A DNA stretch of 64,000 nt from a bacterium (GCA_016708025.1 JADJGQ010000004.1:196903-260902), one strand, 5' to 3'; shown: positions 13,541 to 56,502, counted from the first letter of the stretch. A program made the numbers and translations. Notes: generated by a model not told the origin, from the sequence alone.

Positions 13541-13796
13541 ACGCTCTTTCTATTTGGGTTCGTTTGGGCCGTCCATTGGATGTGGTCGGCTGTCGGGAAG
13601 GACAGGAAAAAAGTTACTGCTGTCAAGTTCTGCGTGCGGCTGTTCGGCATGCCGTATGTGTACCGTTTTCATAGCAGGAAATGGGCAGATTGTGAGACAA
13701 CTGACTTGACTGGATTATCCATATTAGCTATGCTTGCGAGGATCGCCAATGTCTTGTACATACGGACCTAACTCAGTACGTGCCTCGGGAGGATCC

Positions 13797-29060: not shown

Positions 29061-29551
29061 TATTTCGTCTCGTGGTCATCTTCGGTGGTGATGGTGGTAT
29101 TGGTGATCTCGTGTTTGCCGTCCTCGTAGTTCTTCATCCCTTCAATAAGGGTGACCCAGGCAAGCAGGGCACACTTGATGCGAACCGGGAACTGGCGAAC
29201 GCCCTTGAGGGCATCGATATCCCCCAGGTCATCCGGGATCTGCACTTCTTCGCCTTTGAGCATTTTCCGGACGATCTCGGCGATCCGTCGGACCTCATCG
29301 AATGAGCGTCCCTTGACGGTCTCAGCGAGCATTGAGCCGGAGGCTACCGAAATGGCGCAGCCGTGGCAATTCACATGTACATCTTTGACCACGCCATGGT
29401 CCATCTCAACGTCGAGAGATATCTCATCGCCACAGGAGGGGTTCTGGCCGTGGGTGGTGATATCCGCATGGGGAAGGGGTTTCTTCCCGCGCGGGGAACG
29501 ATAGTGATCGAGAATTATCTCGCGATACATGTCGTCAAGCGATGGTGTCAT
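29060..29551 (-). CDS. sufU: SUF-system NifU/IscU-like scaffold / sulfur acceptor SufU
   Basis: YREIILDHYRSPRGK, NPSCGDE and the CHGCAIS motif are present. Confidence 0.85.
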   Translation of the reverse strand: MTPSLDDMYREIILDHYRSPRGKKPLPHADITTHGQNPSCGDEISLDVEMDHGVVKDVHVNCHGCAISVASGSMLAETVKGRSFDEVRRIAEIVRKMLKGEEVQIPDDLGDIDALKGVRQFPVRIKCALLAWVTLIEGMKNYEDGKHEITNTTITTEDDHETK

Positions 29552-30825: not shown

Positions 30826-30854
30826 AGTCTATATGTCCTGGTTCCTTTGAGTGC

Positions 30855-31166
30855 TTAGTCAAGGAACACAAAAATATCGTTGTCTTCAACCTTTACCTGC
30901 AGAGTTTCGATCGGGACGAGCGCCGGCGGAGCGGTAACCTCGCCGGTATGCAGGTGGAATCGGGCGCCGTGGCGGGTACACATGATCTCCTCGCCGCGAA
31001 TCCTTCCGGTATGGATCGGCTCGCCGTCGTGGGTACACTCGTCATTTACCGCATAAAACCCTTCGGCGGTATGGGCGACAATGAACCGATTGTAGCCGAT
31101 CTCAAAAGCCTTTAATTTTCCTGCAGGAATGTCATCGACAGAGGCCACCCGGACGAAAGCACCCAT
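30855..31166 (-). CDS. Rieske [2Fe-2S] ferredoxin-like protein embedded in the suf operon
   Basis: Rieske ligand boxes CTHDGEP and CTRHGARF are present. 103 aa. Confidence 0.85.
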   Translation of the reverse strand: MGAFVRVASVDDIPAGKLKAFEIGYNRFIVAHTAEGFYAVNDECTHDGEPIHTGRIRGEEIMCTRHGARFHLHTGEVTAPPALVPIETLQVKVEDNDIFVFLD

Positions 31167-31167
31167 G

Positions 31168-32484: not shown

Positions 32485-33920
32485 TATCCGACCGAACCTT
32501 CCATTTCAAGCTGAATCAGTCGATTCAGTTCAACTGCGTACTCCAGAGGGAGTTCTTTGGTGAACGGCTCCATGAAGCCGTTGACGATCAACAGGCGTGC
32601 TTCATCCTCGGTCAGCCCACGGCTGGTGAGGTAGAAGAGTTGCTCTTCAGCCACTTTCGACACGCGGGCCTCATGCTCCACCCGCACCTTGTCGGCATCG
32701 ATCTCCATGGTCGGATAGGTATCCGAGCGGGCGTCACGACCGATGAGCAACGCATCGCATTCAACCGAGATCTTCGAGTTGATGGCGTTTTTGTGAACTT
32801 TGGCCAGACCACGATACGAAGCGCGGCCATTATCCTTGGAGATTGATTTCGAGGTAATGCGTGACGAGGTATTCGGCGCGGCATGGATAACCTTGGCGCC
32901 AGCATCCTGATGCTGATCGACTCCGGCAAACGCGACCGAGAGAACCTCGCCGCGGGCGCCTTCACCGAGCAGATTGATGCAGGGGTATTTCATGGTCAGG
33001 CGCGAGCCGAGATTACCGTCGACCCATTCGACGGTCGCATTCGCGTAGGCGTTCGCCCGTTTGGTCACCAGATTGTAGATGTTGCGCGACCAGTTCTGGA
33101 TGGTGGTATATCGAATGTACGATCCCTCCATCGCGATCAGTTCAACCACCGCGGAGTGCAGCGAGTCGGTCGAATAGACCGGAGCGGTGCAACCCTCGAT
33201 GTAATGGACGCGGGAGCCTTTGTCGGCGATAATGAGTGTGCGCTCGAACTGTCCCATGTTCTCCGCATTGATGCGGAAATAAGCCTGGAGCGGGACTTTG
33301 ACATCGACGCCCGGCGGGACATAAATGAATGAACCACCCGACCAGACGGCCGTATTGAGGGCGGCGAATTTATTATCGGTGGACGGGATCACCGAAGCGA
33401 AATACTTCTGCACGATCTCGGGGAACTGGCGAAGACCGGAATCCATATCGAGAAAGAGGATCCCCTGCTTGGTCAGTTCTTCCTTCATCGAGTGGTAAAC
33501 CACTTCTGATTCATACTGAGCGGAGACGCCGCCAAGGAAGCTCTTTTCGGCTTCGGGGATACCGAGGCGGTCAAAGGTCTTCTTGATATAATCCGGGACA
33601 TCATCCCAGCTTTTCTGCTGGTTTTCGATCGGCTTCATGAAGTAGTAGATATTCTCGAAATCGATCTCGCCGAGCAGTTTGGTGTTGCCCCATTTCGGCA
33701 TCGGCTTGGCATAAAAGATGTCGAGCGCCTCGTGGCGGATATCATTCATCCACTTCGGCTCTTTCTTCATGCGCGAGATCATCTCGACGACTTCATGATT
33801 CAGGCCGCGCGCTCCCTTGTGGAAGTAGTCGACCGGATCGTGAAAACCGTACTTGGTCGCGTAATCCGCATTAAGCGACGAGAGATCCTGTTTTTGCTGG
33901 TCTATATTCAGATCAGACAT
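32484..33920 (-). CDS. sufB: Fe-S cluster assembly scaffold SufB
   Basis: 478 aa with highly conserved SufB blocks (AVELIA...[30 protein letters not shown]). Confidence 0.95.
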
Positions 33921-33923
33921 TCG

Positions 33924-34694
33924 TCAAACACCTGCTTTCTGAGCAACTTCCGCCTCGACCCAGTCGTACCCCTGGTCCTCGAGCTTGAGCGCGAGATCCG
34001 CGCCGCCCGACTTCACCAGTTTGCCGGCCATCATCACATGGACAAAATCCGGCTTGATGTAGTTCAAGAGGCGCTGATAGTGAGTCACCATCAGGACACC
34101 GTTGGCGTCCGAGTGGTACTTGTTGATCCCTTCGGCGACGGTCTTGAGCGCGTCGATATCGAGCCCAGAGTCGGTTTCGTCGAGAATCGCCATTTTGGGA
34201 TTCAGGACCGACATCTGGAGGATCTCGATCCGTTTCTTTTCACCGCCGGAGAATCCTTCGTTGAGATAGCGGGTGGCGAAGACCTCATCGATCTCGAGGT
34301 CGGCCATTTTGGCCCGCATCAATTTTCTGAAGTCCGACATTTCGGCATCTTTGCCGCGATGGGCCTGCAGTGCAGAGCGGAGGAAATTGGCGACGGTGAC
34401 GCCCGGGATGGCCAGCGGATACTGGAAGGCGAGAAAGAGACCGGCACGCGAACGCTCATCAGCTTCCATCTCGAGAATATCCACACCATTCAATTTCGCC
34501 CAACCTTTGGTGATCTGATAGTTGGGGTGCCCCATCAGGGCGTTGGAGAGGGAAGACTTGCCGGAACCATTCGGTCCCATGATCGCGTGTACCTCGCCGG
34601 CGTTGATGGTCAGGGTGACGCCATTGACCACCTGCTTGCCATCGACCACTACATGTATGTCGCCACATTCGAACAGCGGCTGTTGAGATGCCAT
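33924..34694 (-). CDS. sufC: Fe-S cluster assembly ATPase SufC
   Basis: Walker A GPNGSGKSS, signature FSGGEKKRIEILQ and Walker B AILDETDSGLD. I prefer the ATG at 34694 (AAGGA upstream) over the track's GTG at 34730. Confidence 0.95.
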   Translation of the reverse strand: MASQQPLFECGDIHVVVDGKQVVNGVTLTINAGEVHAIMGPNGSGKSSLSNALMGHPNYQITKGWAKLNGVDILEMEADERSRAGLFLAFQYPLAIPGVTVANFLRSALQAHRGKDAEMSDFRKLMRAKMADLEIDEVFATRYLNEGFSGGEKKRIEILQMSVLNPKMAILDETDSGLDIDALKTVAEGINKYHSDANGVLMVTHYQRLLNYIKPDFVHVMMAGKLVKSGGADLALKLEDQGYDWVEAEVAQKAGV

Positions 34695-34729
34695 TGAAAC
34701 TCTATCCTTTCGAATCCCGATATTGTTCA

Positions 34730-35245
34730 CTATTCCAGAAAGATGCGGCCACTCGGCTGGTTGAGTTCTTCCTCAAGTGCCGCCTGGCCGACTCGTATAT
34801 GTTCCTGATTGAGGCGGAGCATCTTGGCCTTTTCGGAGGTCAACAGATCCGCGAGAGTTGTTTGTCCCAGGAATGACTGCACATAGCCGGCCACTCCGCC
34901 GAGGACATCCGAGATGGAGCACGTGCCCAGATGGACACACTCTTTTGCATGGCCAGTATACTTCTGGCAATGCTGTGGATCGATCAGTGGTCCGCCAAGT
35001 GCGGTCATCACTTCATACAGATTGATCTCACCGGGATCGCGTGCGATGGAGAAGCCGCCGCCACGTCCGCGTTCAGCAGTGACCAGACCTGCTCGACGCA
35101 AAATCGCGAGGAGTTTGGATGCATAGGGGACCGACAGTCCTTCTGCCTCGGCGATATCTGAGATCGACAATTGCCCGGAGGTTCCGACCCGAGCGAGTGC
35201 CAGAAGGCATCGCAGGCCATACTCTTCAACTGCTGATATTCTCAT
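34730..35245 (-). CDS. Rrf2-family transcriptional regulator (IscR/SufR-like), first gene of the suf operon
   Basis: Rrf2 N-terminal wHTH (MRISAVEEYGLRCLLALAR...ISDIAEAEGLSVPYASKLLAILRRAGLV). Cys residues in the C-terminal half could ligate a cluster. Confidence 0.85.
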   Translation of the reverse strand: MRISAVEEYGLRCLLALARVGTSGQLSISDIAEAEGLSVPYASKLLAILRRAGLVTAERGRGGGFSIARDPGEINLYEVMTALGGPLIDPQHCQKYTGHAKECVHLGTCSISDVLGGVAGYVQSFLGQTTLADLLTSEKAKMLRLNQEHIRVGQAALEEELNQPSGRIFLE

Positions 35246-37170: not shown

Positions 37171-38952
37171 CTAGACTGTCAGCAGACGGTTCTCGAATTT
37201 CTTGCGGCGGTCATAGGGAGTGATATCCGCCAACTCACCCCGTCTGACCCGACGTTTCATCTCTTTCCAGAAATCTGCCGTATAGAGGTCGCCGTGAATT
37301 CGGCGGAATATCCCCTTGAGTGGAAAAGGAATCCCGGAATACCGCTCGGTTTCATCGAGGAAGAAATCGTTTGGCATGGCGGCGATCCGGTCGGAATCAT
37401 CCTCTAACTCTTCCAGTTCGTTTTTCGGCGGCGGTTTGTGCCGGAAATTGACCTGTTCCAGGGGGCAGACATCATCGTAATCAAACAGCACCACTCTGCC
37501 GCGTCTCGTCACGCCGTAGTTCCAGATATTAAAGAGGTCTGACGGGAAGATCCCGATCGATGCGAGGTCTTTCAGGAAGTAACCGAAATCGATGACCACC
37601 CGCCGGATCGATTCTGCGTCCTGCTCTTCCATCAAATAGATAGGGAGTGGTGTCACTTTGCGTTGCAGGTAGAGATGGTGGATGACAACGTATTCCCGCT
37701 CAATACTGACTGCTCCGGACGCAGCGGTGGCGAATTCGTGCAGCAGGTCGGCGGAAAAGCGTTTCCGTTTGAAGCGGAGATTCTCGAACTCCTGGGTGTC
37801 GACCAGACGACCGACACGGTCGCGGTGACAAACAAATTCGTACTGTCTGACGATCTCTTCGCGAGTCGTGCGCTTGCTGGTGGTTTCTTCGCTCCGGAGA
37901 AAGCACGGGCGGTCCTTGATGATCTTAAAGACATAGCCCAAGTCGGGGAGGGTGAAGCCGATCATGACCGCGCCTTCTTTGCCGGGAGCGATAACAAACT
38001 TCTCCCGCGACTCATGCACGAACGAGTGCAGCATGCGATAGAACTCGGTTTTCCCATGTTTGGTGTAGCCTAGCGAAAAATAGAGATCTGAGAGAGGTTT
38101 GGACGGGAGGATCGAACGAAGAAACTCAATCAGTTCATGATGCCATTTGACCTGAACATGGAAGTAGCTGAAGGCAAAGCTGAAAACGATGGAAGCATCG
38201 ACCTCATCCAACAGGGCGGTATCGACATAAATGCCATCGAGACTATTATAGAGCGGGAGGATAAGGGGGAGCAAGTGACCATCAGCACGAATCCGTCCGA
38301 CAAGATAGGCGACCTTGTTGCGGAAAAACGGCGCCTTGATCATATCGATCTCAAACCCACCGCGATAGTGCATGATCGGCCAGACCCGCAGGTTGATTTC
38401 CTGGGAGACAAGTGTTGCATCGGCCTCAAGATCTCTGAATCTGGCCTCGAAGCCGAATTGCCGGAGAATATCCGCGATGACCTTTTCTGTCGGGCCGTTC
38501 ACGTGGTAGGTGCGGAATATCCGCCTGGACGGGTTCTTCTTGGGATTTGGGGTGCGCTGACTGAAGAACTCAACATCGCGGTTGATACCGACAGTCTGGA
38601 GGATCTTGCGGGTGGTGGAATTGAAGTAGGTTTCGGCGAGGTCGCGGTCGTAGCGTCCCCGGATCGCCGAGCGAAAACGTGATTTGATGAGACGCCAGAC
38701 CTGCGGGTCACGGAGTGAATCACCCAGGCATTGACTGAGCATCTGCTCGGCCAGATCGAGCGAGTTTTCGTAGAGGTCGAGGCGCATGGTGGCGATCCGC
38801 TGGCGTTCTTTCCAGTCGCGTTGCTCGAATGTGAGGCGGGACATTCCGGTCAAGCGCTCGAAATCGGCACGATGTTCCTCATGCATGGCGAGGATAAGAT
38901 GTGCGGCATGGGAGACGGTGGTTGTGGACGGAAACTGCGTTGAGCGCGCCAT
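37171..38952 (-). CDS. aceK: isocitrate dehydrogenase kinase/phosphatase
   Basis: 593 aa, collinear with E. coli AceK. FKIIKDRP...HRDRVGRLVDTQEFENL matches FKVIKDRF...EHDRVGRMADTQEFENF, and NYGVTRRGRVVLFDYDDV matches NFGVTRHGRVVFYDYDEI. Confidence 0.9.
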   Translation of the reverse strand: MARSTQFPSTTTVSHAAHLILAMHEEHRADFERLTGMSRLTFEQRDWKERQRIATMRLDLYENSLDLAEQMLSQCLGDSLRDPQVWRLIKSRFRSAIRGRYDRDLAETYFNSTTRKILQTVGINRDVEFFSQRTPNPKKNPSRRIFRTYHVNGPTEKVIADILRQFGFEARFRDLEADATLVSQEINLRVWPIMHYRGGFEIDMIKAPFFRNKVAYLVGRIRADGHLLPLILPLYNSLDGIYVDTALLDEVDASIVFSFAFSYFHVQVKWHHELIEFLRSILPSKPLSDLYFSLGYTKHGKTEFYRMLHSFVHESREKFVIAPGKEGAVMIGFTLPDLGYVFKIIKDRPCFLRSEETTSKRTTREEIVRQYEFVCHRDRVGRLVDTQEFENLRFKRKRFSADLLHEFATAASGAVSIEREYVVIHHLYLQRKVTPLPIYLMEEQDAESIRRVVIDFGYFLKDLASIGIFPSDLFNIWNYGVTRRGRVVLFDYDDVCPLEQVNFRHKPPPKNELEELEDDSDRIAAMPNDFFLDETERYSGIPFPLKGIFRRIHGDLYTADFWKEMKRRVRRGELADITPYDRRKKFENRLLTV

Positions 38953-45702: not shown

Positions 45703-46704
45703 CTATCTGACAGCATCTGCCAGCTCATCGAGGAATTTCTGTTCTTCGACGCCGTGCATTTTACAAGCCATACTGACTGATTCAAACGCCTGTCCCGGAC
45801 AATCAAAACAACCCGAGCCAAAGTATCGCTGAAAGACGGCACGTGCTTCCGGATAGTTCTGCAGTACTTCGCCGATCATGGATGATCCATCAACCTGCGG
45901 CGACCCTGTTTTAGTTATCTTGATCCCGGCCTCTTCCAGATGGCGTTCGAGCGAATCGATCATTCCAGCCATATCGAGACCGTGATTCCGGCAGGCCATG
46001 CCGATCGTTACTCCCATCATTCTCACTTTGTCTATATGGCCCGGGAGCGCCAGCGAGGATAACCCTTTTGCAATGAGCAATTCTTTGACCGAGGGGACCA
46101 GATCGACCAGATCGGATACGCGTGAATGTTGCGACACGGTGACAGTTACTGCGGGCCGGGCTTCGGGTAGGGGTGTCCGAGTCGGTGGCGCCACGGCCAC
46201 TACCTGCGGGGACGGTGACTTTTGCACGACTATATTCGGTTGGAGTGCCGGTGCCGGTTTTTGCTGGAGAGTTGCCCAGATATTGATGACAAACATCAGG
46301 ATCGAAACCAATTGCAGTGTGGCAAAGATCTCAAAGCCGATTTCAAGCGATCGATTGTCCATTTGCAGCGCGAATCCCTTGGTCAGGACCATGCCGACCA
46401 GGCTGAGATTGCCGAGCCAGAAATGAACGGCGATCCATCCGGGGAAGCGAATGTCCGCGCCGTTGAATCGCGGGAGGATGAAGTAGCCGATGCCGAAAAC
46501 CATCATCGACATAAATCCCGCAAGGTTAAAGTGGGTATGCGCGTACTTGGCAAAATAGGCGAGACTGGGCAATGAGTTGAACATCGCAAGAATCGAACCG
46601 ATCGCCAGGTAGGCGACTGAGGCGTAGATAAACCGTTTCATATACGGGGTCATGCTGATCTCCTGAATCGTAACGTTGAGCGGAAGATCGGATGGTTGTT
46701 GCAC
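45703..46704 (-). CDS. membrane protein (about 4 TM with an HTH histidine pair) fused to two DUF1858-like redox-disulfide domains
   Basis: The N-terminal ~150 aa are hydrophobic (AHTHFNLAGFMSMMVFGIGYFILPRF). A Pro-rich linker follows. The C-terminus carries two helical DUF1858-type modules, the last with GCFDCPG. The start codon is uncertain. Confidence 0.5.
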   Translation of the reverse strand: MQQPSDLPLNVTIQEISMTPYMKRFIYASVAYLAIGSILAMFNSLPSLAYFAKYAHTHFNLAGFMSMMVFGIGYFILPRFNGADIRFPGWIAVHFWLGNLSLVGMVLTKGFALQMDNRSLEIGFEIFATLQLVSILMFVINIWATLQQKPAPALQPNIVVQKSPSPQVVAVAPPTRTPLPEARPAVTVTVSQHSRVSDLVDLVPSVKELLIAKGLSSLALPGHIDKVRMMGVTIGMACRNHGLDMAGMIDSLERHLEEAGIKITKTGSPQVDGSSMIGEVLQNYPEARAVFQRYFGSGCFDCPGQAFESVSMACKMHGVEEQKFLDELADAVR

Positions 46705-47562: not shown

Positions 47563-47585
47563 CGGCGGGGTCTCAAACCCCGCCG
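47563..47585. terminator. GC-rich hairpin between convergent genes (bidirectional terminator candidate)
   Basis: CGGCGGGGT (47563-47571), loop CTCAA, ACCCCGCCG (47577-47585). An A-run precedes it, giving a U-tract for the minus-strand transcript. Confidence 0.7.
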
Positions 47586-47612: not shown

Positions 47613-48056
47613 TTAGACCGCCGATTTCATTTTTTCCTGCGGCAGGACGATCTCTTTCCATTCCAGCGCCTTGGTCGGGCAGAAATGAGCGCAGACCGGA
47701 TCGCCACCACAGAGATCACACTTTATGACGAGGTTGTGCAGTTTGTCATGGAGCGAGCAGCCAAAGGGACAGGCAGCAACGCAGGCCATACAACGGACAC
47801 AAACTTTCGGGTCTATCTCATACGCGCCAGTCACCGGGTTAAGAGTGATGGCGTTGACCAGGCATGATTTGACGCAGGCCGGGTCCTCACACTGAAAACA
47901 GACGACCGGGACATAAAGGTCCTTAAATCCACCAGCGAGCGGATAAATTCTGCTTCGTCCCGGTTTGCCATCCACCTGATGAGTGAACGAGCAGGCCAGT
48001 TCACAGGTCCGGCAGCCGGTGCAGAGGTCGGGTTTGACCATGAAGCGGTGATTCAT
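47613..48056 (-). CDS. 4Fe-4S dicluster ferredoxin-type protein (DmsB/HycB-like)
   Basis: Cys clusters CTGCRTCELAC, CFQCEDPAC, CVRCMACVAACP and CDLCGGDPVC are present. Confidence 0.85.
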   Translation of the reverse strand: MNHRFMVKPDLCTGCRTCELACSFTHQVDGKPGRSRIYPLAGGFKDLYVPVVCFQCEDPACVKSCLVNAITLNPVTGAYEIDPKVCVRCMACVAACPFGCSLHDKLHNLVIKCDLCGGDPVCAHFCPTKALEWKEIVLPQEKMKSAV

Positions 48057-48841
48057 TTCAGATCCTCCCGACTCCAGGCAGCAATGGCGCCCATGTTGGT
48101 TGCGGTCTCCTTGCGATGTGATTCATCATTCAAGTCGAAATAGTCTGCCGGGATATTCCGGTGCGCAATCAGGTACTCGGCGAATTCGCGGGTAATGGTC
48201 GGCGCGCCGGTCCGCTTGTCGGTCACCATCTCAAACTGCTTCTTCCAAATAGTTCTGGTTTTGCCCGAATCGGTGAACTTGATGTAATTGGTTGGGCAGT
48301 TGAGAGCGCAGGCGAGACAGCCGACACAACTCTCCGGAGCTTCACCCAATGGCGGGGCGATCTCACGACCGTGGCCGCGATTGACGGTCGAGATCGCATG
48401 GAAACCCATCGTATCGCAGATGCGGGTGCAGATGCCGCAGAGGATACAATCGTTCGGTTCCGGGACTGGCTGGAAGCTGGTGGAATTTATGCCGTAATCC
48501 GCGGCGAGCTGTTGAATCAAGGGTGTGTGCGGATTACGGGCTAACATCAGGTCGATAATTGTTTTGCGCAGTTCGATCACCTGGTTTGAATGGGTCTGAA
48601 CGATCAGACCATCGGCCACGGGGTAGAGGCAGGAGGTGACCATGTCGGACCAGCCGTTCCATTCCGCTTTGGTGATCTCCACCATGCAAACGCGGCAGCC
48701 GCCATAGGGTTCGACAGCGTCATGCTGGCACAGGGCAGGGACATCGATCCCTTCGCGGCGAAGGACCTTGAGGAGGTACTCGCCTTCAGTCGCCCGGACC
48801 AGCTTGCCGTTGACGGTTATCGTAACAGTTTTCATACTCAT
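48053..48841 (-). CDS. NuoG/HydA-N-terminal-like iron-sulfur protein ([2Fe-2S] plus [4Fe-4S] domains, no catalytic domain)
   Basis: Trimmed to the ATG at 48841, which overlaps the upstream stop. It has a plant-type 2Fe-2S N-terminus (ITVNGK...C..D...C.VC), then CILCGICTRIC and CVGCLACALNCP. At about 262 aa it has no H-cluster or molybdopterin domain. Confidence 0.8.
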   Translation of the reverse strand: MSMKTVTITVNGKLVRATEGEYLLKVLRREGIDVPALCQHDAVEPYGGCRVCMVEITKAEWNGWSDMVTSCLYPVADGLIVQTHSNQVIELRKTIIDLMLARNPHTPLIQQLAADYGINSTSFQPVPEPNDCILCGICTRICDTMGFHAISTVNRGHGREIAPPLGEAPESCVGCLACALNCPTNYIKFTDSGKTRTIWKKQFEMVTDKRTGAPTITREFAEYLIAHRNIPADYFDLNDESHRKETATNMGAIAAWSREDLK

Positions 48842-50697
48842 TTGACCTCGATCGCGTCGAACTTGCAGACCGCCACACAGGCGCCGCACTTCTCGCATTT
48901 ATCCTGGTGGATGAAGTGTGGCTTTTTCTTTTCACCGGTGATGGCATTGTAAGCGCAGGCCGTGATACAGGCGACACAGCCGGTGCACTTGTCTTCAAGA
49001 ACGGTATAGGTGATGAGCGATTTGCAGACGCCGGCCGGGCAACGTTTCTCCCGAATGTGCGCCAGGTATTCATCACGGAAATATCGGATAGTCGACAGGA
49101 ATGGATTCGGACCGGATTTCCCCAGTCCACAGAGCGAACCAACGATGATCGACTCGGAGAGCTTCTCCATTCTGACGAGATCTTCTTCGGTTCCTTCGCC
49201 ATTGCAGATCTTGATGGTCAATTCATGCAATTGGTAAAGACCTTCACGACAGGGAACGCATTTGCCGCACGACTCAGATACCAGGAACGACAGGAAGTAA
49301 CGGGCGACATCCACCATGCAGGTTTTGTCATCCATCACGATCATGCCGCCGGAACCCATCATTGAACCGTTTTTGGTCAGGGAATCGAAATCAACCGGAA
49401 GGTCCAGCATTGATTCAGGGAGACAACCGCCCGAGGGTCCACCGGTCTGAACGGCTTTGAACGGCCGATTCTCCAGAATGCCGCCGCCGATCTCATAAAT
49501 GATCGTGCGTAGCGTAGTCCCCATCGCTACTTCGATCAGGCCGGTATTGCGGACTTTACCAACCAGCGAAAACGCCTTGGTCCCGCTGTTGTTCTTGCAG
49601 CCGATGGAGGTAAACCAATCGGCTCCTTTGAGCATAATGATCGGGACATTGGCAAAGGTCTCGACATTATTCAGCACGGTTGGCTGATCATGCAGACCTT
49701 TCACCACCGAGCGGATATATTTGGCGCGTGGTTCGCCGACTTCGCCAGCCACCGAGCGCATAAGGGCCGATGATTCGCCGCAGACAAAGGCTCCGGCGCC
49801 GCGATTGATCCGGATACGGAAAGAGAAGTCGGTGCCGAGAATGTTGTCGCCAAGCAGACCGTTGGCTTCGCATTCATCGATCGCCTTCTGCAGATGAACG
49901 ACCGCCAACGGGTATTCATCGCGAACGTAGATATATCCCTGCTTGGCGCCGATCGCGAAGGCGCAGATCATCATCCCTTCAAGGACGGAGTGCGGATCGC
50001 CTTCCATGATAGAGCGATCCATGAAGGCGCCGGGGTCACCTTCGTCACCGTTGCAGATGACGTAGTGAATATCCGACTGCACGCTTTTGCAGGTGCGCCA
50101 CTTTTTGCCGGCGGGGAATCCACCGCCCCCACGACCACGCAGGCCGGACTTAATGATCTCATCGATGACCGTGTCGGGGGTCATGGTGGTCAATACCTTG
50201 GCGAGCGCCTGGTACCCCTCGACAGCGATATATTCGCGGATATCATTCGCGGCGATCTTGCCGAGATTGCGGAGAGCGATTCGCGACTGATGCGCAAAGA
50301 AATTAACATCGTGATACCGTTCGATTCGATGTTCCGTCACCGGGTCTTTGTAGAGGAGCGGGGAGAGGATCTCGCCGTTGGCGATCGTCTTATCAACGAT
50401 GGCGGCGACATCTTTCGGTTTCACGCGGGTGTAGAATGTCCCTTGCGGTTCGATCACGACCAGTGGTCCCTGCTCGCAGAAACCATGACAGCCGGTCTCT
50501 TTGACGGCTTCGACGGTGAAGTCCTTGATATTTTTTTCGGCCAGATGCGCATGGAAGGCATCGACAATCGCGCGAGCGCCATTGGCCAGACAGCCGGTAC
50601 CGCAGCAGACGATCACCTTCTTGGGGAATCGTTCCTGTTTTGCCGCCAGTTCAACGTGGCGTTTCTTCAGTTCCTGAGGATTGGCAATGATGCACAT
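48838..50697 (-). CDS. NuoF/HydB-type NADH-binding flavoprotein with an N-terminal thioredoxin-like [2Fe-2S] domain and two C-terminal [4Fe-4S] ferredoxin domains
   Basis: CCGTGC...CHGFC (N-terminal 2Fe-2S). GLRGRGGGGFPAGKKW (FMN/NADH site). ESCGKCVPCREG (N3-type cluster). CTGCVACITAC and CEKCGACVAVC at the C-terminus. Confidence 0.9.
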   Translation of the reverse strand: MCIIANPQELKKRHVELAAKQERFPKKVIVCCGTGCLANGARAIVDAFHAHLAEKNIKDFTVEAVKETGCHGFCEQGPLVVIEPQGTFYTRVKPKDVAAIVDKTIANGEILSPLLYKDPVTEHRIERYHDVNFFAHQSRIALRNLGKIAANDIREYIAVEGYQALAKVLTTMTPDTVIDEIIKSGLRGRGGGGFPAGKKWRTCKSVQSDIHYVICNGDEGDPGAFMDRSIMEGDPHSVLEGMMICAFAIGAKQGYIYVRDEYPLAVVHLQKAIDECEANGLLGDNILGTDFSFRIRINRGAGAFVCGESSALMRSVAGEVGEPRAKYIRSVVKGLHDQPTVLNNVETFANVPIIMLKGADWFTSIGCKNNSGTKAFSLVGKVRNTGLIEVAMGTTLRTIIYEIGGGILENRPFKAVQTGGPSGGCLPESMLDLPVDFDSLTKNGSMMGSGGMIVMDDKTCMVDVARYFLSFLVSESCGKCVPCREGLYQLHELTIKICNGEGTEEDLVRMEKLSESIIVGSLCGLGKSGPNPFLSTIRYFRDEYLAHIREKRCPAGVCKSLITYTVLEDKCTGCVACITACAYNAITGEKKKPHFIHQDKCEKCGACVAVCKFDAIEVK

Positions 50698-50698
50698 A

Positions 50699-51169
50699 TT
50701 AACTGTCCTTCAGGATCTTCTTGGCGGTGTTGACTTTGACGCCGCCATGGTATTTTTCGTTGACGATCACGACCGGGGCCATGGCACAGGCGCCCACACA
50801 GGCGACGACTTCGATGGAGAACTCCATATCCGAGGTCGTTTGTCCTGCCTTGATCCCCAGATGATTTTCTATCTGATCCTGGATCAGGGCAGCTCCGCGA
50901 ATATGACAGGCGGTACCGGTACAGATCCGGACGATTCGTTTTCCTTTCGGAACGAGGGAGAAGGCATTGTAAAAGGTCGCGACCGAAAAGACCTTGGAGA
51001 GCGGTACATCGAGCGCTTCGGCGGTCGCTTTGAGCGCCTCACAGGGCAGGTAGCGGTATTCGCGCTGGATCTCCTGCAGGATCATGATCAGCGAACCCGG
51101 CTCTTGCGGATGCCGCGCGATCAGGTCCGGCAATTTGGAGAAATCGTGGCTGACCGAAGGTGTGCTCAC
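50699..51169 (-). CDS. NuoE/HydC-type thioredoxin-like [2Fe-2S] protein
   Basis: ICTGTACHIRG...CVGACAMAP ligand pattern present. 156 aa. It overlaps the oxidoreductase gamma gene by 4 nt. Confidence 0.85.
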   Translation of the reverse strand: MSTPSVSHDFSKLPDLIARHPQEPGSLIMILQEIQREYRYLPCEALKATAEALDVPLSKVFSVATFYNAFSLVPKGKRIVRICTGTACHIRGAALIQDQIENHLGIKAGQTTSDMEFSIEVVACVGACAMAPVVIVNEKYHGGVKVNTAKKILKDS

Positions 51170-51729
51170 GCATGGCTCCTTTCGGCGAGGGCGGCTTGCC
51201 CGAATTTATAGCCGGCTTCGAAAACTTTCATATTGGTCTCAAGCAGATTCTTTTTCGATCCAAGTTTCTCTTCGAGAACTTTGAGCACGGTCTTGTATTC
51301 CACGAGTCCAGTCGCCGCAACGAAACATCCCAGCACGGCGACATTGGTTGATTTCACCGATCCTCCCTCCAGCGCCATTTGATTGGCCGGGATCAGTATC
51401 TGGGTGATATCGGTCCGGTCGCTACTGACGCTTATGAGGGATGAATTGACTATCAGCAATCCGCCAGCTTTCACGCGAGGAGAAAACTTGTCAAACGATG
51501 GGCGATTGAATACGCAGCATGCCGATGGGTTATTGATAACCGGGGAGCCGATGCGGAGATCGCTGATCACGACGGTGCAATAGGCTGTTCCTCCGCGCAT
51601 CTCCGGGCCGTAGGAGGGCAGCCAGACGACATTTTTCCCCTCTTTAATGCCGCTGTAGGCGAGCAACTGTCCCGCGACCATGACGCCCTGGCCGCCGAAA
51701 CCGGCCATGGTGACTTCGTACTGCTTCAC
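51166..51729 (-). CDS. 2-oxoacid:ferredoxin oxidoreductase, gamma subunit
   Basis: GFGGQGV...SYGPEMRGG motifs present. 187 aa. Confidence 0.85.
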   Translation of the reverse strand: MKQYEVTMAGFGGQGVMVAGQLLAYSGIKEGKNVVWLPSYGPEMRGGTAYCTVVISDLRIGSPVINNPSACCVFNRPSFDKFSPRVKAGGLLIVNSSLISVSSDRTDITQILIPANQMALEGGSVKSTNVAVLGCFVAATGLVEYKTVLKVLEEKLGSKKNLLETNMKVFEAGYKFGQAALAERSHA

Positions 51730-52481
51730 TTCACCTCCTCAGGTGTCTTGTAGACACCGAGCGGGAAGTAGCTCTTCAGATTCGCTTCCACCCAATTGGT
51801 CGATTCCGCGGGGGTTTTTCCCCAGTTGGTCGGACAGGTGGAGAGGACCTCGACGAGCGAGAAGCACTTGTTTTCGATCTGATACTGGAAGGCCCGACGA
51901 ATCGCCTTCTTGGTGCGAATGATCTGTTGCGGATTGTGCACCGCGACACGCTCCAAATACGACGGCGTGACCAGACCGGAGAGCAGTTCGCACATGCGAA
52001 TCGGCATACCGGTTTTGGCAGTGTCGCGACCCAGTGGGCAGGTGGTTGCGACTTGTCCGGACAGGGTAGTCGGGGCCATCTGGCCTCCGGTCATGCCATA
52101 GATGGCGTTGTTTACGAAGATAGTTGTGAACTTCTCGCCGCGATTGGCGGCGTGAATGATCTCGCTCATGCCGATCGAGGCCAGGTCACCATCGCCCTGA
52201 TAGGTAAACACGATCATATCGGGGCGGATCCGCTTGAAGCCGGTCGCCAGCGCAGGGGCGCGACCATGCGGTGATTCCAGAAAATCAGTATTGAAGTAAT
52301 TGTATGCCAGAACCGAGCAACCGACCGGCGCAACGCCGACAGTCCGCTCGCGCACGCCCAGCTCATCGAGAACTTCCGCCACCAGCCGATGGATCACGCC
52401 ATGCGTGCAACCGGGGCAGTAGTGCGTCACGACATCCTGGAGCGACTCCGGCCGTGCAAATGTAGTAGTCAAAGTATGCAT
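51726..52481 (-). CDS. 2-oxoacid:ferredoxin oxidoreductase, beta (TPP-binding) subunit
   Basis: CPGCTHG near the N-terminus and the TPP motif GDGDLASIG...NNAIYGMTGGQ are present. Confidence 0.9.
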   Translation of the reverse strand: MHTLTTTFARPESLQDVVTHYCPGCTHGVIHRLVAEVLDELGVRERTVGVAPVGCSVLAYNYFNTDFLESPHGRAPALATGFKRIRPDMIVFTYQGDGDLASIGMSEIIHAANRGEKFTTIFVNNAIYGMTGGQMAPTTLSGQVATTCPLGRDTAKTGMPIRMCELLSGLVTPSYLERVAVHNPQQIIRTKKAIRRAFQYQIENKCFSLVEVLSTCPTNWGKTPAESTNWVEANLKSYFPLGVYKTPEEVK

Positions 52482-52485
52482 AACG

Positions 52486-53574
52486 TCATGCCTTCGCTTT
52501 CGCCGGCGTTCCGGCAGCGAGCAGTTGCTTGATCTGATCGATCACTTCTTCCGGAGACGGAACTATTCCGCCGGTCCGGCCAAAGAACTTCACCGGTCTC
52601 TGTCTGGCGACGACGCGTTCGACATCCTCCACCATCTGTCCCATACTCATTTCCACGGTCAGGACTGTCTCGATATTCGGCTTAGTCGCTTCCGCGTACA
52701 ATTGCGATTCGGGGAAGGGGAAACAGGAGATCGGTCGGAAGAGACCGACTGAGATCCCCTCGGTCTCGAGTTCATCGATGGCGGTCTGGCAGATTCTCGC
52801 CATTGTGCCGTAGGCGACGAGCAGGATTTTGTTTTTGGGATTGGTCTTATAGCACTCGTAACGGATCTCGTCGCGCTTCATCATCTCATATTTCTGGTGC
52901 AGGACGATGTTGTTTTTCTCGAGCGCGATCGGATCGAGGAAGAGTGACTTGACCACAAGCGGACGTCGCTCGCTCGCGCCGGTCGCGGCCCAGGTTTTGG
53001 CGGGGAGAGGCGGTTCAGTATGTTCGTCCGGGAATTCAACCGGTTCCATCATCTGGCCGATCATGCCATCGCCGATGATCATCACCGGATTGCGATACTT
53101 GTCGGCGAGGTAGAAGGCCTGCATGGTCAGGTCGACCGCTTCCTGAATGGTTGATGGGGCAAGAACCAGCAACCGGTAGTCACCATGGCCGCCGCCTTTG
53201 GTTGCCTGGAAATAGTCTGACTGAGCCGGGAGGATGCCACCGAGTCCGGGTCCGCCGCGCATGATATTCAAAAGGACCACGGGTAGTTGAGCGCCGGCCA
53301 TGTAAGAGATCGATTCCTGCATCAAAGAGATGCCGGGGCTGGAGGATGTGGTGAAGACCCGTTTGCCGGTTGAAGCCGCGCCAAACAGCATATTGCCGAC
53401 AGCGACCTCGGATTCGGCCTGGAGAAAAACTCCGCCGACCTCGGGGAGTCGTTTGGCGAGGTATTCGCCGACCTCGTTCTGCGGGGTGATCGGATACGCG
53501 AAATAGTAGAGGGCGCCGGCCCGTACTGCCGCTTCCGCGATCGCCTCATTCCCTTTCATCAATATCTTAGCCAT
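52486..53574 (-). CDS. 2-oxoacid:ferredoxin oxidoreductase, alpha subunit
   Basis: GNEAIAEAAVRAG...YPITPQNE...ESEVAV...TSSSPGISLM blocks are typical of KorA/VorB/OorA. Confidence 0.9.
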   Translation of the reverse strand: MAKILMKGNEAIAEAAVRAGALYYFAYPITPQNEVGEYLAKRLPEVGGVFLQAESEVAVGNMLFGAASTGKRVFTTSSSPGISLMQESISYMAGAQLPVVLLNIMRGGPGLGGILPAQSDYFQATKGGGHGDYRLLVLAPSTIQEAVDLTMQAFYLADKYRNPVMIIGDGMIGQMMEPVEFPDEHTEPPLPAKTWAATGASERRPLVVKSLFLDPIALEKNNIVLHQKYEMMKRDEIRYECYKTNPKNKILLVAYGTMARICQTAIDELETEGISVGLFRPISCFPFPESQLYAEATKPNIETVLTVEMSMGQMVEDVERVVARQRPVKFFGRTGGIVPSPEEVIDQIKQLLAAGTPAKAKA

Positions 53575-53586
53575 CGTTCACCACTC

Positions 53587-53820
53587 TCAATAATCGTACA
53601 GCACGTACATTTGCCCGTGATGGTTCACCGAGATGGCGGCATCGGGGCAGGTTATGGCGCAGATCCGGCAGCCGATACAGCGGGACGGGTCATGCATCTG
53701 CGCATGAAAATAACCGCGTAAGGTGATCTCTCGCGACATCGAGAGGATCTTCTGCGGGCATGCCTTGACGCACAGCTCGCATCCCTTGCAGTGGTTGGTG
53801 TCGATCACAACTCCAGGCAT
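53587..53820 (-). CDS. 2-oxoacid:ferredoxin oxidoreductase, delta (2x[4Fe-4S] ferredoxin) subunit
   Basis: CKGCELCVKACP and CIGCRICAITCP motifs present. 77 aa. Confidence 0.85.
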   Translation of the reverse strand: MPGVVIDTNHCKGCELCVKACPQKILSMSREITLRGYFHAQMHDPSRCIGCRICAITCPDAAISVNHHGQMYVLYDY

Positions 53821-54587
53821 CAGCGTATCCTCAGTCGTTTGTCAGTCCAGGTATTGCCGATATGTTCCCATGGTTTGACCAGTGCGCGGTCCAGGACCAG
53901 CATGGGAAGATCCAGGGTGGCCGGGTTCATTTGCGCGGCGATCGCTTTCACCGCGCTGACAAAAGCAATGGGAAGTGTACTTCGCTGGCTTACCCGGCGA
54001 GCCAGCGAAATACCTTCCTCTATGATCTCGACAGTAGTTTCCTGCATCAAGTGGGTATTGGAGATGATCCCGGTGAAGTGGAGGCGCGAAGAAGCCTCGA
54101 TCTCGTTCATCAATTGCAGTGTCCCCTCCAGGTCAGCCGTAAAGGGGCGACGGGCATTCAGAACCAGCAACATCTCGTAGCTTTCAGGATGGATTGCGTC
54201 AGCCAGAGAACTGAGGACTCGCGCGCCGATGTCATCACCGCCGACATCAAGGATCAACCACCCGTTGGGATTCTCCAGAGCGGTGCGAATTTCGGGAATG
54301 ATGATCGGCAGGTCGGCGTGAACATGCGGACCGGCGGGGACAAGTGACTTGACGCCGAAGGACTCCAGTTGCAGCGCAGCCTCGCGTGAGCGGAAATAGG
54401 GATTCACGACATCCAGATCGGCAATGGAGACAGGTTCGGTGCTATTTTGCGCAAGCTGTTTGGCTAGGTTGACTGAAATCTCCGACTTGCCCGAGCCATA
54501 GCCGCCGACGATGATAATCGTCCGATGGCGAAAGGAGGGGGAGGCAAATGTCGAAACTTCGTGCGCCATGGTCCAGTTTGCTTTCAT
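53820..54587 (-). CDS. MinD/ParA/CooC-superfamily P-loop ATPase, first gene of the oxidoreductase operon
   Basis: Walker A IIIVGGYGSGKSE and a Walker B-like WLILDVGGDD. The start of the delta gene shares 1 nt with its stop. Confidence 0.6.
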   Translation of the reverse strand: MKANWTMAHEVSTFASPSFRHRTIIIVGGYGSGKSEISVNLAKQLAQNSTEPVSIADLDVVNPYFRSREAALQLESFGVKSLVPAGPHVHADLPIIIPEIRTALENPNGWLILDVGGDDIGARVLSSLADAIHPESYEMLLVLNARRPFTADLEGTLQLMNEIEASSRLHFTGIISNTHLMQETTVEIIEEGISLARRVSQRSTLPIAFVSAVKAIAAQMNPATLDLPMLVLDRALVKPWEHIGNTWTDKRLRIR

Positions 54588-54720
54588 CTATCGTCCCTCC
54601 AGAAAAAGAGTTAGAGGTATTCGATAGAAAATTAGTCTTAATTGTCCACTCTTAAAAATATCGCCAGATTGGTCCGTGAAGTCAAGGCGAATTGTGAAAA
54701 AAATAACGATGAAATGATAT

Positions 54721-54824: not shown

Positions 54825-55679
54825 ATGAGACAGACTTTTTGCCGTATTTTCTTGTCCGGTGCGGTCTTCGCTGCCGTATTCATGACCAGTTGTGGCAACC
54901 AAGAGAAGAGCGAAACAGCGCCTGATTCCGGAGCGGACAGCGCCGTCGTCGGTACCAGTTCTGCCTATCTGACCCGCCCGTGGGAGGACCCCAAGTTTGC
55001 TGGCTGGCAGAGGACGGAATTTGAAAATGTGGTGGTTTATTATCCGCCCACTCATCAGCATCAGGCAGACATGGCGCAGACGGCCAAGAACTACCGGAAC
55101 GCGATCACCAAGATCAGTGGCACAGCGCAACTTCCGGTGCCAACCGACACGATTCGGGTCTTTTACTTCACCGGTCCCGGGCAGGGGTTTGAGTTGACGC
55201 AGCGACCATTCCCGTACGGAGATTCGATTGCGGTCTACTATTGGCCGAATTACTCCCACGGGGTATCGCTGATGCAGCGACTCTTTTATAGCTATTTTGG
55301 CGGCTGGTCAACGCAGCAGATCATGCATCACGGCCTGATCGCCCTGTTCGACTTTTCGGGAGAGAATCACCACGAGACCACGCTGGAGTTTTTGCGGGAC
55401 ACGTTTTTCATTCCGCTATCCCGGCTGGCGAGTGACACGGCGATGGATAGCGATTATGAACGCTATCAGTCCGGCGAGGCTGGTTCGCTGGTAGCGTATA
55501 TCCTGGCTTCACGAGGTAGTACGGGGGTTGAGGCAATGTATCGTTCGACTCTCCCGTTCGACCAGGCCGTGCAACAGGTGATGGGGATCACGCTCGATTC
55601 GCTACAAAAGGAATGGATCAGTTTTATTGAGGCGAATGTCGGGCCTATTGACACGACGAAAGCAAAATCCGGGTCCTGA
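54825..55679 (+). CDS. hypothetical lipoprotein
   Basis: Signal peptide plus lipobox (FMTSC). No recognised domain. Confidence 0.5.
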   Translation: MRQTFCRIFLSGAVFAAVFMTSCGNQEKSETAPDSGADSAVVGTSSAYLTRPWEDPKFAGWQRTEFENVVVYYPPTHQHQADMAQTAKNYRNAITKISGTAQLPVPTDTIRVFYFTGPGQGFELTQRPFPYGDSIAVYYWPNYSHGVSLMQRLFYSYFGGWSTQQIMHHGLIALFDFSGENHHETTLEFLRDTFFIPLSRLASDTAMDSDYERYQSGEAGSLVAYILASRGSTGVEAMYRSTLPFDQAVQQVMGITLDSLQKEWISFIEANVGPIDTTKAKSGS

Positions 55680-55731
55680 ACGGGGTTCGGTCAGACTAGC
55701 GACCTGTTCTAATTATAGAGGTAACGCGATC

Positions 55732-56502
55732 ATGTCAGATGCTGAATGGAAAACTGCGATAACTGATATCGGCCCCGGGAAGATCCGGGTGCGGGGGTAC
55801 GATATTGCCGATATCATGGCCAACTTGTCCTATGCCGAGGTGGTCTACTTGATTCTGAAGGGGGAATTGCCGACCAAGGCCGAGGCGGCTTTGATGAATG
55901 CCATACTGGTTTCATCGATCGACCACGGCGCCTCGCCGCCCTCGGTTCTCGGCACACGAACGGTTCTCTCGGGCGGAAATTCGCTCAACGCGGCGATCGC
56001 TGGCGGAGTACTGGTTATCGGTGATACTCATGGCGGCGCGATCGAGCAGTCCGCGAAGATCCTTCAGGAGTGGGCGAAAAAAGAGGGAGAGCCATCTGTG
56101 CTCGCCGCCCAGATCGTCGATTGGCTCAATCAAACCAAAAAGCGAATGCCGGGATTCGGCCATCGCCTGCATAACGTTGACCCGCGCACGGGGAAACTGT
56201 TTGAGATAGCGGCGACACATGGCTACAGCGGCCGGCATATCGAGATCTGCAAAGCGCTGGAGACGGCCCTGGCGCAGAAGACGGGGAAGCAGCTTCCGAT
56301 CAACGTGGATGGCGCTATTGCGGCGGTGATCTCCGATATGGGGTTTGACTGGAGACTCGGCAAAGGGTTCTTTATCATCTCCCGCACACCGGGATTATTG
56401 GCGCACGCTTACGAAGAGATGACCCGGGAGAAGCCGATGCGGAAGCTTGGGCCAATGCCATTTGAGTATGATGGTCCGGCCGAACGGAAGATCCCGAAGT
56501 AG
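55732..56502 (+). CDS. short citrate-synthase-family protein, citryl-CoA lyase-like
   Basis: Trimmed to the ATG at 55732 (MSDAEWK), with AGAGG upstream. About 257 aa, with the citrate-synthase catalytic region GDTHGGA...PGFGHRLH..DPR. The length matches the short citryl-CoA lyase type rather than a full citrate synthase. Confidence 0.7.
   Translation: MSDAEWKTAITDIGPGKIRVRGYDIADIMANLSYAEVVYLILKGELPTKAEAALMNAILVSSIDHGASPPSVLGTRTVLSGGNSLNAAIAGGVLVIGDTHGGAIEQSAKILQEWAKKEGEPSVLAAQIVDWLNQTKKRMPGFGHRLHNVDPRTGKLFEIAATHGYSGRHIEICKALETALAQKTGKQLPINVDGAIAAVISDMGFDWRLGKGFFIISRTPGLLAHAYEEMTREKPMRKLGPMPFEYDGPAERKIPK

Follow-up and report, generated by a model that had tools for sequence, protein, structure and literature searches.

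What kind of enzyme is made by an operon in which a complete 2-oxoacid:ferredoxin oxidoreductase is joined to subunits resembling NuoE, NuoF and the N-terminal part of NuoG, with no hydrogenase or formate dehydrogenase module in sight? This question is raised by nine genes on the minus strand (positions 47613-54587) of a 64,000-nucleotide stretch of bacterial DNA (GCA_016708025.1 JADJGQ010000004.1:196903-260902), which in its full length is called the window here. An original prediction, made from the sequence alone, had proposed that these genes form one unit tying 2-oxoacid oxidation directly to NAD(H) and ferredoxin, with the oxidoreductase as the only catalytic partner encoded in the operon. 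After following this up with profile searches, structure models and a comparison of related loci, we regard it as fairly probable that the operon encodes one multi-subunit enzyme of the Bfu family, of Type 2, in which an oxidoreductase of the VorB type would supply the 'third substrate' reaction. The comparative evidence supports the proposed unit, and it is from this evidence that we infer the physical association of its subunits and the bifurcation of electrons. All features of the operon are listed in Table 1.

The Bfu family is defined by a BfuBC core that carries clusters B1-B5 and C1, with a BfuB that combines a NuoF-type flavin mononucleotide (FMN)/NAD(H) domain, SLBB, NADH_4Fe-4S and a C-terminal 4Fe-4S ferredoxin domain. 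Non-bifurcating homologues are without B2-B5, and cluster B2 has both Cys and His ligands (Schut et al. 2022, PMC9304861). The family is further characterised by tight coupling among three substrates, for which NAD(H) as well as ferredoxin must be present. When the window proteins were assigned to domains by Pfam and NCBIfam profile searches, the domains that had been read from the sequence beforehand were returned. The NuoF-like protein, which had been described as a bifurcating-type subunit, indeed contained an N-terminal thioredoxin-like 2Fe-2S domain, Complex1_51K (E 2.5e-45), NADH_4Fe-4S (E 1e-28) and a C-terminal 2x[4Fe-4S] region (Fer4/Fer4_7), with an SLBB match of 24.3 bits that falls slightly under the 27-bit Pfam cut-off. 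Its best PDB matches were B subunits of bifurcating enzymes, namely NiFe-HydB (7t2r_B, E 2.5e-224), HydB (8a6t_B), WorB (9mqx_B, E 5.8e-222) and NfnB, and these were far better than the matches to NuoF of complex I. The ligands of B5 were located at C31/36/70/74, those of B1 at C477/480/483/523, and those of B3 and B4 within C571-581 and C601-611. For B2, the alignment placed C460/C498/H547/C553/C558 on C438/C476/H525/C531/C536 of 7t2r_B. The NuoE-like protein has the four ligands of the [2Fe-2S] cluster C1 (C83, C88, C124 and C128).

The NuoG-like protein is only 262 aa long and, as had been noted before, has no H-cluster or molybdopterin domain. Its twelve cysteines make up one [2Fe-2S] site (A1) and two CxxCxxCxxxC [4Fe-4S] sites (A2 and A4), and a motif and Pfam scan of all 262 residues found neither the HxxxCxxCxxxxxC motif of a His-ligated [4Fe-4S] cluster nor a catalytic domain. 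Our reading of A3 as this His-ligated cluster is taken from the Bfu papers and from the structures of complex I and HydA. Type 2 BfuA proteins have A1, A2 and A4 alone, without A3 or A5, and catalysis is placed in additional subunits (PMC9304861). Having no catalytic domain, a protein of this type depends on a donor module from outside. The best PDB match of the window BfuA was WorA (9mqx_A, E 1.3e-44), and an AlphaFold2 model (predicted local distance difference test score, pLDDT, of 82) could be aligned with WorA over 247/247 columns at a template modelling (TM) score of 0.81. The model ends in a long C-terminal helix (residues 239-261) and has a WorA-like C-terminal ribbon in which the four Zn cysteines are replaced by D, T, N and S. 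Some of its orthologues retain all four of these cysteines, and the C-terminus of one of them (P0317) aligns to the WorA Zn finger with E 3.9e-5. Judged by sequence, the NuoE-, NuoF- and NuoG-like proteins have every feature by which a BfuC/B/A core is recognised, with a BfuA of Type 2.

The four genes upstream of this core, in the order delta-alpha-beta-gamma, show the hallmarks of a VorB-type four-subunit oxidoreductase. Besides its YPITP motif, the alpha subunit reached 519.6 bits with the NCBIfam VorB profile NF005507 (cut-off 399). The beta subunit has the thiamine pyrophosphate (TPP) motif GDG-x24-NN, which falls within the expected GDG-x(24-27)-NN, and a Cys22/25/55/216 pattern for one [4Fe-4S] cluster, and the delta subunit has eight cluster cysteines. 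The PDB entries nearest to alpha were 1yd7, 8ys5 and 6n2n, all 2-ketoacid/2-oxoglutarate enzymes, with the Por-type alpha 9bt4_B far more distant. At the operon's opposite end, gene 9 encodes a small polyferredoxin for which the best PDB match was AorA (8c0z_C, E 3e-27), together with WorS (9mqx_E, E 9.4e-26), and the best NCBIfam match was the N-terminal polyferredoxin domain of PadI (E 7e-25). AorA and WorS are the four-cluster subunits through which tungsten enzymes are connected with their NAD modules (for WorS, PMC12318220). The earlier domain calls were thus upheld, and three things had escaped them: the VorB type of the oxidoreductase, the WorS/AorA-type four-cluster nature of gene 9, and the homology of the NuoG-like protein to WorA.

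We next considered how widely this arrangement recurs. Zixibacteria and further uncultured lineages supplied the closest homologues of the NuoF-like protein, which are 95-68% identical. When this protein was used as the query in a scan that took one genome per species, 80 loci were obtained, each of which was then searched with the nine window proteins. In 26 of these loci, designated class I, BfuB is 67-95% identical to that of the window; they stem from Zixibacteria, GN15, Ignavibacteriales-labelled metagenome-assembled genomes (MAGs) and one Smithella bin. All 16 class I loci on contigs of sufficient length have the nine genes in the same order (16/16), and nine truncated loci all agree with it. 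The same set was present on a Joint Genome Institute metagenome contig and in MAGs labelled Delongbacteria and Calditrichaeota, so that the full order is known from about 19 independent genomes. The arrangement is not due to chance, because the same nine genes follow each other in the same order in every related locus that is long enough. One apparent class I bfuB locus without an oxidoreductase (L017) was discarded, as a 100-N assembly gap lies exactly there, and with this gap set aside no locus of the class I BfuB clade has Bfu genes without the oxidoreductase. Neither a hydrogenase nor a formate dehydrogenase gene was found in or beside the operon in the class I loci examined (a subset of loci, with flanks annotated or matched to the window). 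The adjacency of oxidoreductase and NuoEF-like genes is therefore not peculiar to this contig, nor do the relatives examined keep to the side of a hydrogenase or formate dehydrogenase. Together with the BfuB ligands, this recurrence and these flanks favour the four-subunit oxidoreductase as the sole catalytic partner in the operon.

The same loci revealed which details are kept. The most conserved junction of the operon is the one between gamma and bfuC, which are translationally coupled by a 4-nt overlap in 21/21 class I loci. The C1 ligands of BfuC are conserved in class I, as are the eight cysteines of delta (8/8) and the 16 cluster cysteines of gene 9, the C-terminal tail of which is short and variable in the alignment. 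In BfuB, position C498 is Cys in 13/21 loci, and every other ligand is kept in 21/21. The position equivalent to C498 is the one B2 position at which variation is permitted, with Thr in about two-thirds of BfuB sequences (PMC9304861).

A Bfu enzyme with a 2-oxoacid oxidoreductase as partner has been predicted before. In Dehalococcoides (D. mccartyi) and syntrophic Deltaproteobacteria, four pyruvate oxidoreductase subunits are encoded together with bfuABC, and the resulting Por-Bfu, which is uncharacterised, has been proposed to link pyruvate with both NAD and ferredoxin (PMC9304861). Its WorA homologue has the Zn finger and no C-terminal helix, and a WorS homologue is absent (PMC12318220). Literature searches for a characterised oxidoreductase-Bfu enzyme, or for mention of one in Zixibacteria, gave just this prediction of 2022 and a single sentence of the 2025 paper on the Wor-Bfu structure. 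Nine of our 80 loci, from Deltaproteobacteria, Desulfatiglandales and Dehalococcoidales, match the published type and form class II, in which Por-type gamma-delta-alpha-beta genes are followed by bfuC-bfuB-bfuA and by nothing further. The window operon resembles them in having a four-subunit oxidoreductase directly upstream of bfuC-bfuB-bfuA, a Type 2 BfuA, and the same hypothesised coupling to NAD+ and ferredoxin. However, its oxidoreductase is of the VorB type with a delta-alpha-beta-gamma order, and the class II subunits are only 25-30% identical to it (alpha 26-29%), with BfuB at 55-59%. In a neighbour-joining tree, class I BfuB was monophyletic and formed a clade of its own, apart from class II and outside the Por sub-clade (Chloroflexi/Deltaproteobacteria), which fits the published partner-specific BfuB clades. 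In the alignment class II BfuA stops right after the CxxC...CxxC Zn finger, whereas class I BfuA runs about 20 residues longer. The BfuA C-terminal helix and the WorS-like gene are thus both present in class I and both missing from the Por-type class II, which also has no P-loop NTPase (Por-Bfu consists of seven subunits, A-G). While the concept of an oxidoreductase-Bfu enzyme is already in print, the operon is a distinct variant of it with respect to oxidoreductase lineage, BfuB clade, WorA-type helix, WorS-type subunit and NTPase. In class II it is a different oxidoreductase lineage that independently adjoins bfuCBA. We propose tentatively, and with somewhat less than even confidence, that the Bfu core recruited 2-oxoacid oxidoreductases at least twice. 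The second recruitment would reuse the WorABCS scaffold of a helix-bearing BfuA and a WorS-type polyferredoxin, with a TPP enzyme replacing the tungsten subunit and a new cysteine-free SIMIBI NTPase as assembly factor.

With WorABCSL of Acetomicrobium mobile (PDB 9mqx, PMC12318220) the operon shares a WorA-type full-length BfuA, a WorS-type gene 9, the BfuB match and a low-potential third substrate. In that structure WorA and WorS wire the catalytic subunit to the BfuBC core (PMC12318220), and a similar wiring role for BfuA and gene 9 is supported because WorA and WorS are their closest relatives. In contrast to WorABCSL, there is no tungstopterin subunit WorL, the place of which is taken by the TPP-dependent oxidoreductase; no gene resembling aldehyde oxidoreductase (AOR) was found among the nine operon genes or in the annotated class I flanks. 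Also in contrast, the window BfuA has lost the Zn-finger cysteines that some orthologues keep, and the tail of the polyferredoxin is short and variable. Since the BfuA Zn cysteines and the polyferredoxin helix are missing, the docking geometry may differ from that of WorABCSL, and since the gene 9 tail is short and not conserved, a filament or nanowire of the WorS type is not indicated.

Two other groups of enzymes are informative. In the NADH-dependent phenylglyoxylate dehydrogenase PadEFGHI (NCBIfam NF045762/64/66), an oxidoreductase likewise feeds NAD+ via a dedicated module, and the N-terminal domain of PadI resembles gene 9. This polyferredoxin domain is fused to the beta subunit in PadI and is a separate gene here; the fusion provides a precedent for a polyferredoxin on an NAD+-feeding oxidoreductase. 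The NAD module of the Pad enzyme is the PadH flavoprotein, and not a NuoEF/Bfu module. Against the NCBIfam Pad families, alpha, beta and gamma of the window scored 54-88 bits at cut-offs of 300-700, which leaves them outside these families. The ferredoxin-dependent VOR-cluster enzymes, such as HpdDEFG of Clostridium scatologenes (PMC13285125) and the archaeal VorB family, share the VorB-type alpha subunit and the delta-alpha-beta-gamma layout, but they work with free ferredoxin, and no Bfu genes adjoin theirs.

As a single complex, the products of the operon would hold about 16 Fe-S clusters, TPP and FMN. A 2-oxoacid, together with coenzyme A (CoA), would be decarboxylated at the TPP on alpha/beta, and the electrons would run from the beta [4Fe-4S] cluster through the two delta [4Fe-4S] clusters to the four clusters of the WorS-like polyferredoxin, and from there through A4, A2 and A1 of BfuA to B1 of BfuB and the FMN/B2/C1 bifurcation site. 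At this site they would be split between NAD+ (hydride at FMN) and ferredoxin (via B2, B3 and B4); the FMN/B2/C1 pathway has been established for NiFe-Bfu and Wor-Bfu (PMC9304861, PMC12318220). By analogy with WorS on WorA, the C-terminal helix of BfuA is probably the docking site of the polyferredoxin. The net reaction, again on the model of Wor-Bfu, would be 2 2-oxoacid + 2 CoA + NAD+ + 2 Fd(ox) -> 2 acyl-CoA + 2 CO2 + NADH + 2 Fd(red), where Fd stands for ferredoxin. In such a scheme, the exergonic reduction of NAD+ would sustain ferredoxin reduction when substrate is scarce or when the ferredoxin pool is already highly reduced. Thermodynamics favour the oxidative, catabolic direction, because confurcation of NADH and ferredoxin yields electrons that are less reducing than those of ferredoxin alone, for a couple at about -500 mV.

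The clues to the substrate diverge. The NCBIfam match points to VorB, the PDB neighbours of alpha point to 2-oxoglutarate, and the genomic context is mixed, with genes for citryl-CoA lyase and AceK near the operon and, in one locus, GlcD/GlcF pairs and a tripartite ATP-independent periplasmic (TRAP) transporter. VOR-cluster enzymes accept differing substrates, including alkyl- and aryl-pyruvates (PMC13285125), and a literature search for specificity-determining residues in such oxidoreductases returned nothing usable. From these homologies, the substrate could possibly be 2-oxoisovalerate, another alkyl- or aryl-pyruvate, or 2-oxoglutarate.

Several points weigh against a single bifurcating complex. 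Membership in one operon is no proof of a stable complex, and the published Por-Bfu is itself a hypothesis. The likeness to WorABCSL is incomplete, with the four WorA Zn-finger cysteines gone from the window BfuA and the polyferredoxin devoid of a conserved WorS-like C-terminal helix. As to the substrate, the alpha subunit belongs to the VorB subfamily, yet its closest solved structures are 2-oxoglutarate enzymes. Moreover, with a 2-oxoacid couple at about -500 mV, both NAD+ and ferredoxin could be reduced in the absence of bifurcation, which leaves the energetic argument for it short of compelling. One may ask whether the Bfu module is a mere diaphorase in a non-bifurcating NAD+-linked oxidoreductase like PadEFGHI or AorABC, in which all electrons from the 2-oxoacid would travel via the polyferredoxin, BfuA and B1 to FMN and NAD+, and ferredoxin would not be an obligatory co-substrate. 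The oxidation of 2-oxoacids is exergonic with NAD+ alone, and gene 9 has its best family match in PadI, which belongs to an NAD-dependent oxidoreductase, just as its best PDB match is AorA of the NAD-linked AorABC. We nevertheless consider a diaphorase unlikely, given that BfuB retains B2-B5, including the B2 histidine, which are absent from non-bifurcating homologues (PMC9304861). The conservation of these ligands throughout the 21 class I loci, with C498 as the only variable position, points to selection on the ferredoxin branch.

The operon could also encode two separate, co-transcribed enzymes: a ferredoxin-dependent VorB-type oxidoreductase, and a complex of BfuABC and the polyferredoxin that re-oxidises ferredoxin, either as a ferredoxin:NAD+ oxidoreductase or together with a catalytic partner encoded elsewhere. 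Co-transcription of linked but separate enzymes is common, and the complete delta subunit would offer the oxidoreductase its normal exit to free ferredoxin. What makes this improbable is that the stop/start overlap found in all 21 loci lies exactly at the oxidoreductase/Bfu boundary, that a class I BfuB was never seen without the oxidoreductase (the gap in L017 being an assembly gap), and that no gene for an AOR, hydrogenase, formate dehydrogenase or carbon monoxide dehydrogenase was found in the class I flanks annotated or matched to the window. In addition, a core of BfuA and polyferredoxin without a third-substrate module is unprecedented in the family survey (PMC9304861). The single complex might, finally, run in reverse as a 2-oxoacid synthase, confurcating NADH and reduced ferredoxin to drive the reductive carboxylation of an acyl-CoA, for example of succinyl-CoA to 2-oxoglutarate, or, in amino-acid synthesis, of a branched acyl-CoA to a branched 2-oxoacid. 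Archaeal VorB enzymes have been described as anabolic. The conserved divergent citryl-CoA lyase gene described below (13 class I scan loci and further contigs) would suit a synthase, and a reductive direction has been proposed for Por-Bfu in gluconeogenesis (Schut et al., PMC9304861). However, a mix of NADH (about -280 mV) and ferredoxin (about -500 mV) would come to about -400 mV, a weaker reductant than ferredoxin alone for a couple at about -500 mV (Table 1 of PMC9304861), and one locus has two GlcD/GlcF-type 2-hydroxyacid dehydrogenase pairs and a TRAP transporter around the operon, which is a catabolic context. A synthase is in our view quite improbable, and the single, oxidatively working Bfu complex is the reading that we carry forward.

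Bfu enzymes set the balance between NADH and ferredoxin in anaerobes, and no member that uses a 2-oxoacid as third substrate has been purified; the operon provides a second, differently built candidate that is widespread in Zixibacteria and related uncultured lineages. If the second recruitment took place as proposed, anaerobes of the Fibrobacteres-Chlorobi-Bacteroidetes (FCB) group have an NAD+- and ferredoxin-coupled oxidation of 2-oxoacids, possibly of 2-oxoglutarate, that is misannotated as complex I or hydrogenase diaphorase. The current gene names are 'NADH-quinone oxidoreductase subunit F', 'bidirectional [NiFe] hydrogenase diaphorase subunit' and 'cobalamin biosynthesis protein CbiA', and such names would steer metabolic reconstructions wrongly to respiration or hydrogen metabolism. 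The BfuA helix and the WorS-like subunit, which occur together in class I and are jointly lacking in the Por type, yield a rule, open to testing, for the way in which the Bfu core takes up its catalytic modules, and the conserved NTPase is an unexplored candidate for an accessory factor. The significance is limited by the fact that the general concept has been published and that the present case is known from sequence and predicted structure.

The layout of the operon was as had been anticipated. A mechanical list of open reading frames (ORFs) contained nine co-directional ORFs on the minus strand between 47613 and 54587, and the profile searches and a terminator scan bore out a nine-gene set that ends at a strong hairpin. 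From gene 1 to gene 9, the spacings at the eight junctions are -1, +12, +4, -4, -4, +1, -4 and -4 nt, in keeping with the overlaps of 1-4 nt and short gaps (largest 12 nt) that had been reported. The gamma/bfuC overlap at 51166-51169, given as ATGA in the original prediction, in fact reads GTGA, with a GTG start over a TGA stop and AGGAG 6 nt upstream; the overlaps of bfuB with bfuA (48838-48841) and of bfuA with gene 9 (48053-48056) are both ATGA. The mechanical ORF of bfuA extends to 48898, inside bfuB, and its start was set at 48841 because its homologues are 256-264 aa long. The hairpin (47585-47563), followed by the T-run TTTTTCGTTT, is the best terminator-like site on the minus strand of the region. 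The promoter listed in Table 1 sits in the 237-nt divergent intergenic region upstream of gene 1, and with 8 promoter-like sites against 4.9 +/- 2.3 expected by chance it is merely a candidate. For internal promoters and terminators, site counts in the consensus scan were near the shuffled expectation, and no such site fell on the gamma/bfuC junction, although the sigma-70 consensus is possibly unsuited to this phylum.

Table 1. Genes and transcription signals of the nine-gene operon, in window coordinates.
Feature	Description	Coordinates	Strand	Basis
Gene 1	P-loop NTPase, 255 aa, Walker A GGYGSGKS, no cysteine	53820..54587	-	Motifs, AlphaFold2 model
Gene 2	Delta subunit, 77 aa, 2x[4Fe-4S] (CxxCxxCxxxC twice)	53587..53820	-	Pfam, NCBIfam, motifs
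Gene 3	Alpha subunit, 362 aa, VorB subfamily, YPITP at residue 27	52486..53574	-	POR_N + PFOR_II
Gene 4	Beta subunit, 251 aa	51726..52481	-	TPP_enzyme_C
Gene 5	Gamma subunit, 187 aa, POR domain	51166..51729	-	Pfam; stop codon overlaps BfuC start
Gene 6	BfuC (NuoE/HydC-like), 156 aa	50699..51169	-	Pfam 2Fe-2S_thioredx, E 1.3e-48
Gene 7	BfuB (NuoF/HydB-like), 619 aa, FMN/NAD(H) site, clusters B1-B5	48838..50697	-	Pfam, PDB matches
Gene 8	BfuA Type 2 (NuoG-N-terminal-like), 262 aa	48053..48841	-	Fer2_4 + Fer4 dicluster (Pfam)
Gene 9	WorS/AorA-type polyferredoxin, 147 aa, four [4Fe-4S] motifs	47613..48056	-	Fer4_11
Terminator	Intrinsic, strong	47563..47585	-	10-bp stem (8 GC pairs), 3-nt loop, T-rich tail
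Promoter	Candidate, TTGACT, 17-nt spacer, GATATT	54657..54685	-	Consensus scan, weak 9/12 match

Gene 1 comes first in every complete class I locus. It gave merely weak CbiA/nSTAND3 matches in Pfam, no NCBIfam match, no PDB sequence match and no family above cut-off. Its AlphaFold2 model (pLDDT 86) had as top Foldseek matches the signal recognition particle GTPases Ffh and FtsY at a TM score of about 0.5, and on the strength of this model it is a SIMIBI-class NTPase, with no finer placement. Homologues with an identity of only 42-49% are, on short contigs, still placed ahead of VorB-type delta-alpha-beta(-gamma) genes, and one homologue at 37% identity lies in an unrelated context. At E <= 1e-3 the wider family comprises 2175 representatives, which are unnamed save for automatic 'CbiA' labels. 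Two remote homologues (P0417, 681 aa, and P0440, 672 aa) carry a fused N-terminal Mur-ligase-like module (Mur_ligase_M + Mur_ligase_C). That gene 1 serves as an accessory factor for assembly or maturation is a guess.

Divergent from the operon, on the plus strand, lie an uncharacterised putative lipoprotein gene (54825-55679) and, beyond it, a gene for a citryl-CoA lyase family protein (55627-56502; NCBIfam NF004869, 305.8 bits at a cut-off of 212). This pair holds its position in 13 class I scan loci, where the lyase is 70-96% identical, and on further metagenome contigs, and it is absent from the Smithella-bin and Delongbacteria-labelled loci. The lyase neighbour may reflect a link to the tricarboxylic acid cycle and 2-oxoglutarate, or plain phylum-level synteny. 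In the Smithella locus (Smithella sp. PtaU1.Bin162, contig MVRV01000149), the operon is preceded by two tandem pairs of a GlcD-like FAD oxidase and a CCG-domain Fe-S protein (459-6085) and followed by a DctPQM TRAP transporter (13280-16224). These surroundings, with pairs of the 2-hydroxyacid dehydrogenase type, are a catabolic organic-acid context. BfuA of this locus appears split into 153 aa and a fragment, probably by an assembly error. Five further loci of the scan (L025, L043, L060, L067 and L078, from Syntrophaceae and related MAGs) belong to a neighbouring BfuB clade and have a 231-aa BfuA whose Cys-rich C-terminus resembles neither that of class I nor that of class II; beside their Bfu genes no oxidoreductase was recognisable.

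Just past the operon terminator, on the same strand, the window has a gene (45703-46704, 333 aa) for a protein whose N-terminal membrane domain weakly resembles haem-copper oxidase subunit I in its C-terminal part, and which ends in a DUF1858 'hybrid cluster protein-associated redox disulfide' domain; the gene is kept in the two closest relatives (L001 and L004). Downstream genes common to several Zixibacteria (STAS, SpoIIE, Nudix, histidine kinase and sigma-54 regulator) have regulatory or housekeeping roles and offer no hint about metabolism. Further away, the minus strand encodes a full-length AceK, the isocitrate dehydrogenase kinase/phosphatase (37171-38952; regulatory and kinase domains at E 1e-83 and 1e-77). 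The best-known examples of AceK are in Proteobacteria with a glyoxylate shunt, and it is unexpected in a presumably anaerobic Zixibacteria genome. A suf operon for Fe-S assembly (sufC, sufB, sufD and sufS; 29548-34730, minus strand) lies about 13 kb from the nine genes, the products of which would call for roughly 16 Fe-S clusters in each complex; this proximity is probably a coincidence. The GC skew is strongly positive, at 0.12-0.19, over positions 1-24000 of the window, where genes lie on both strands, and 0.01-0.08 thereafter.

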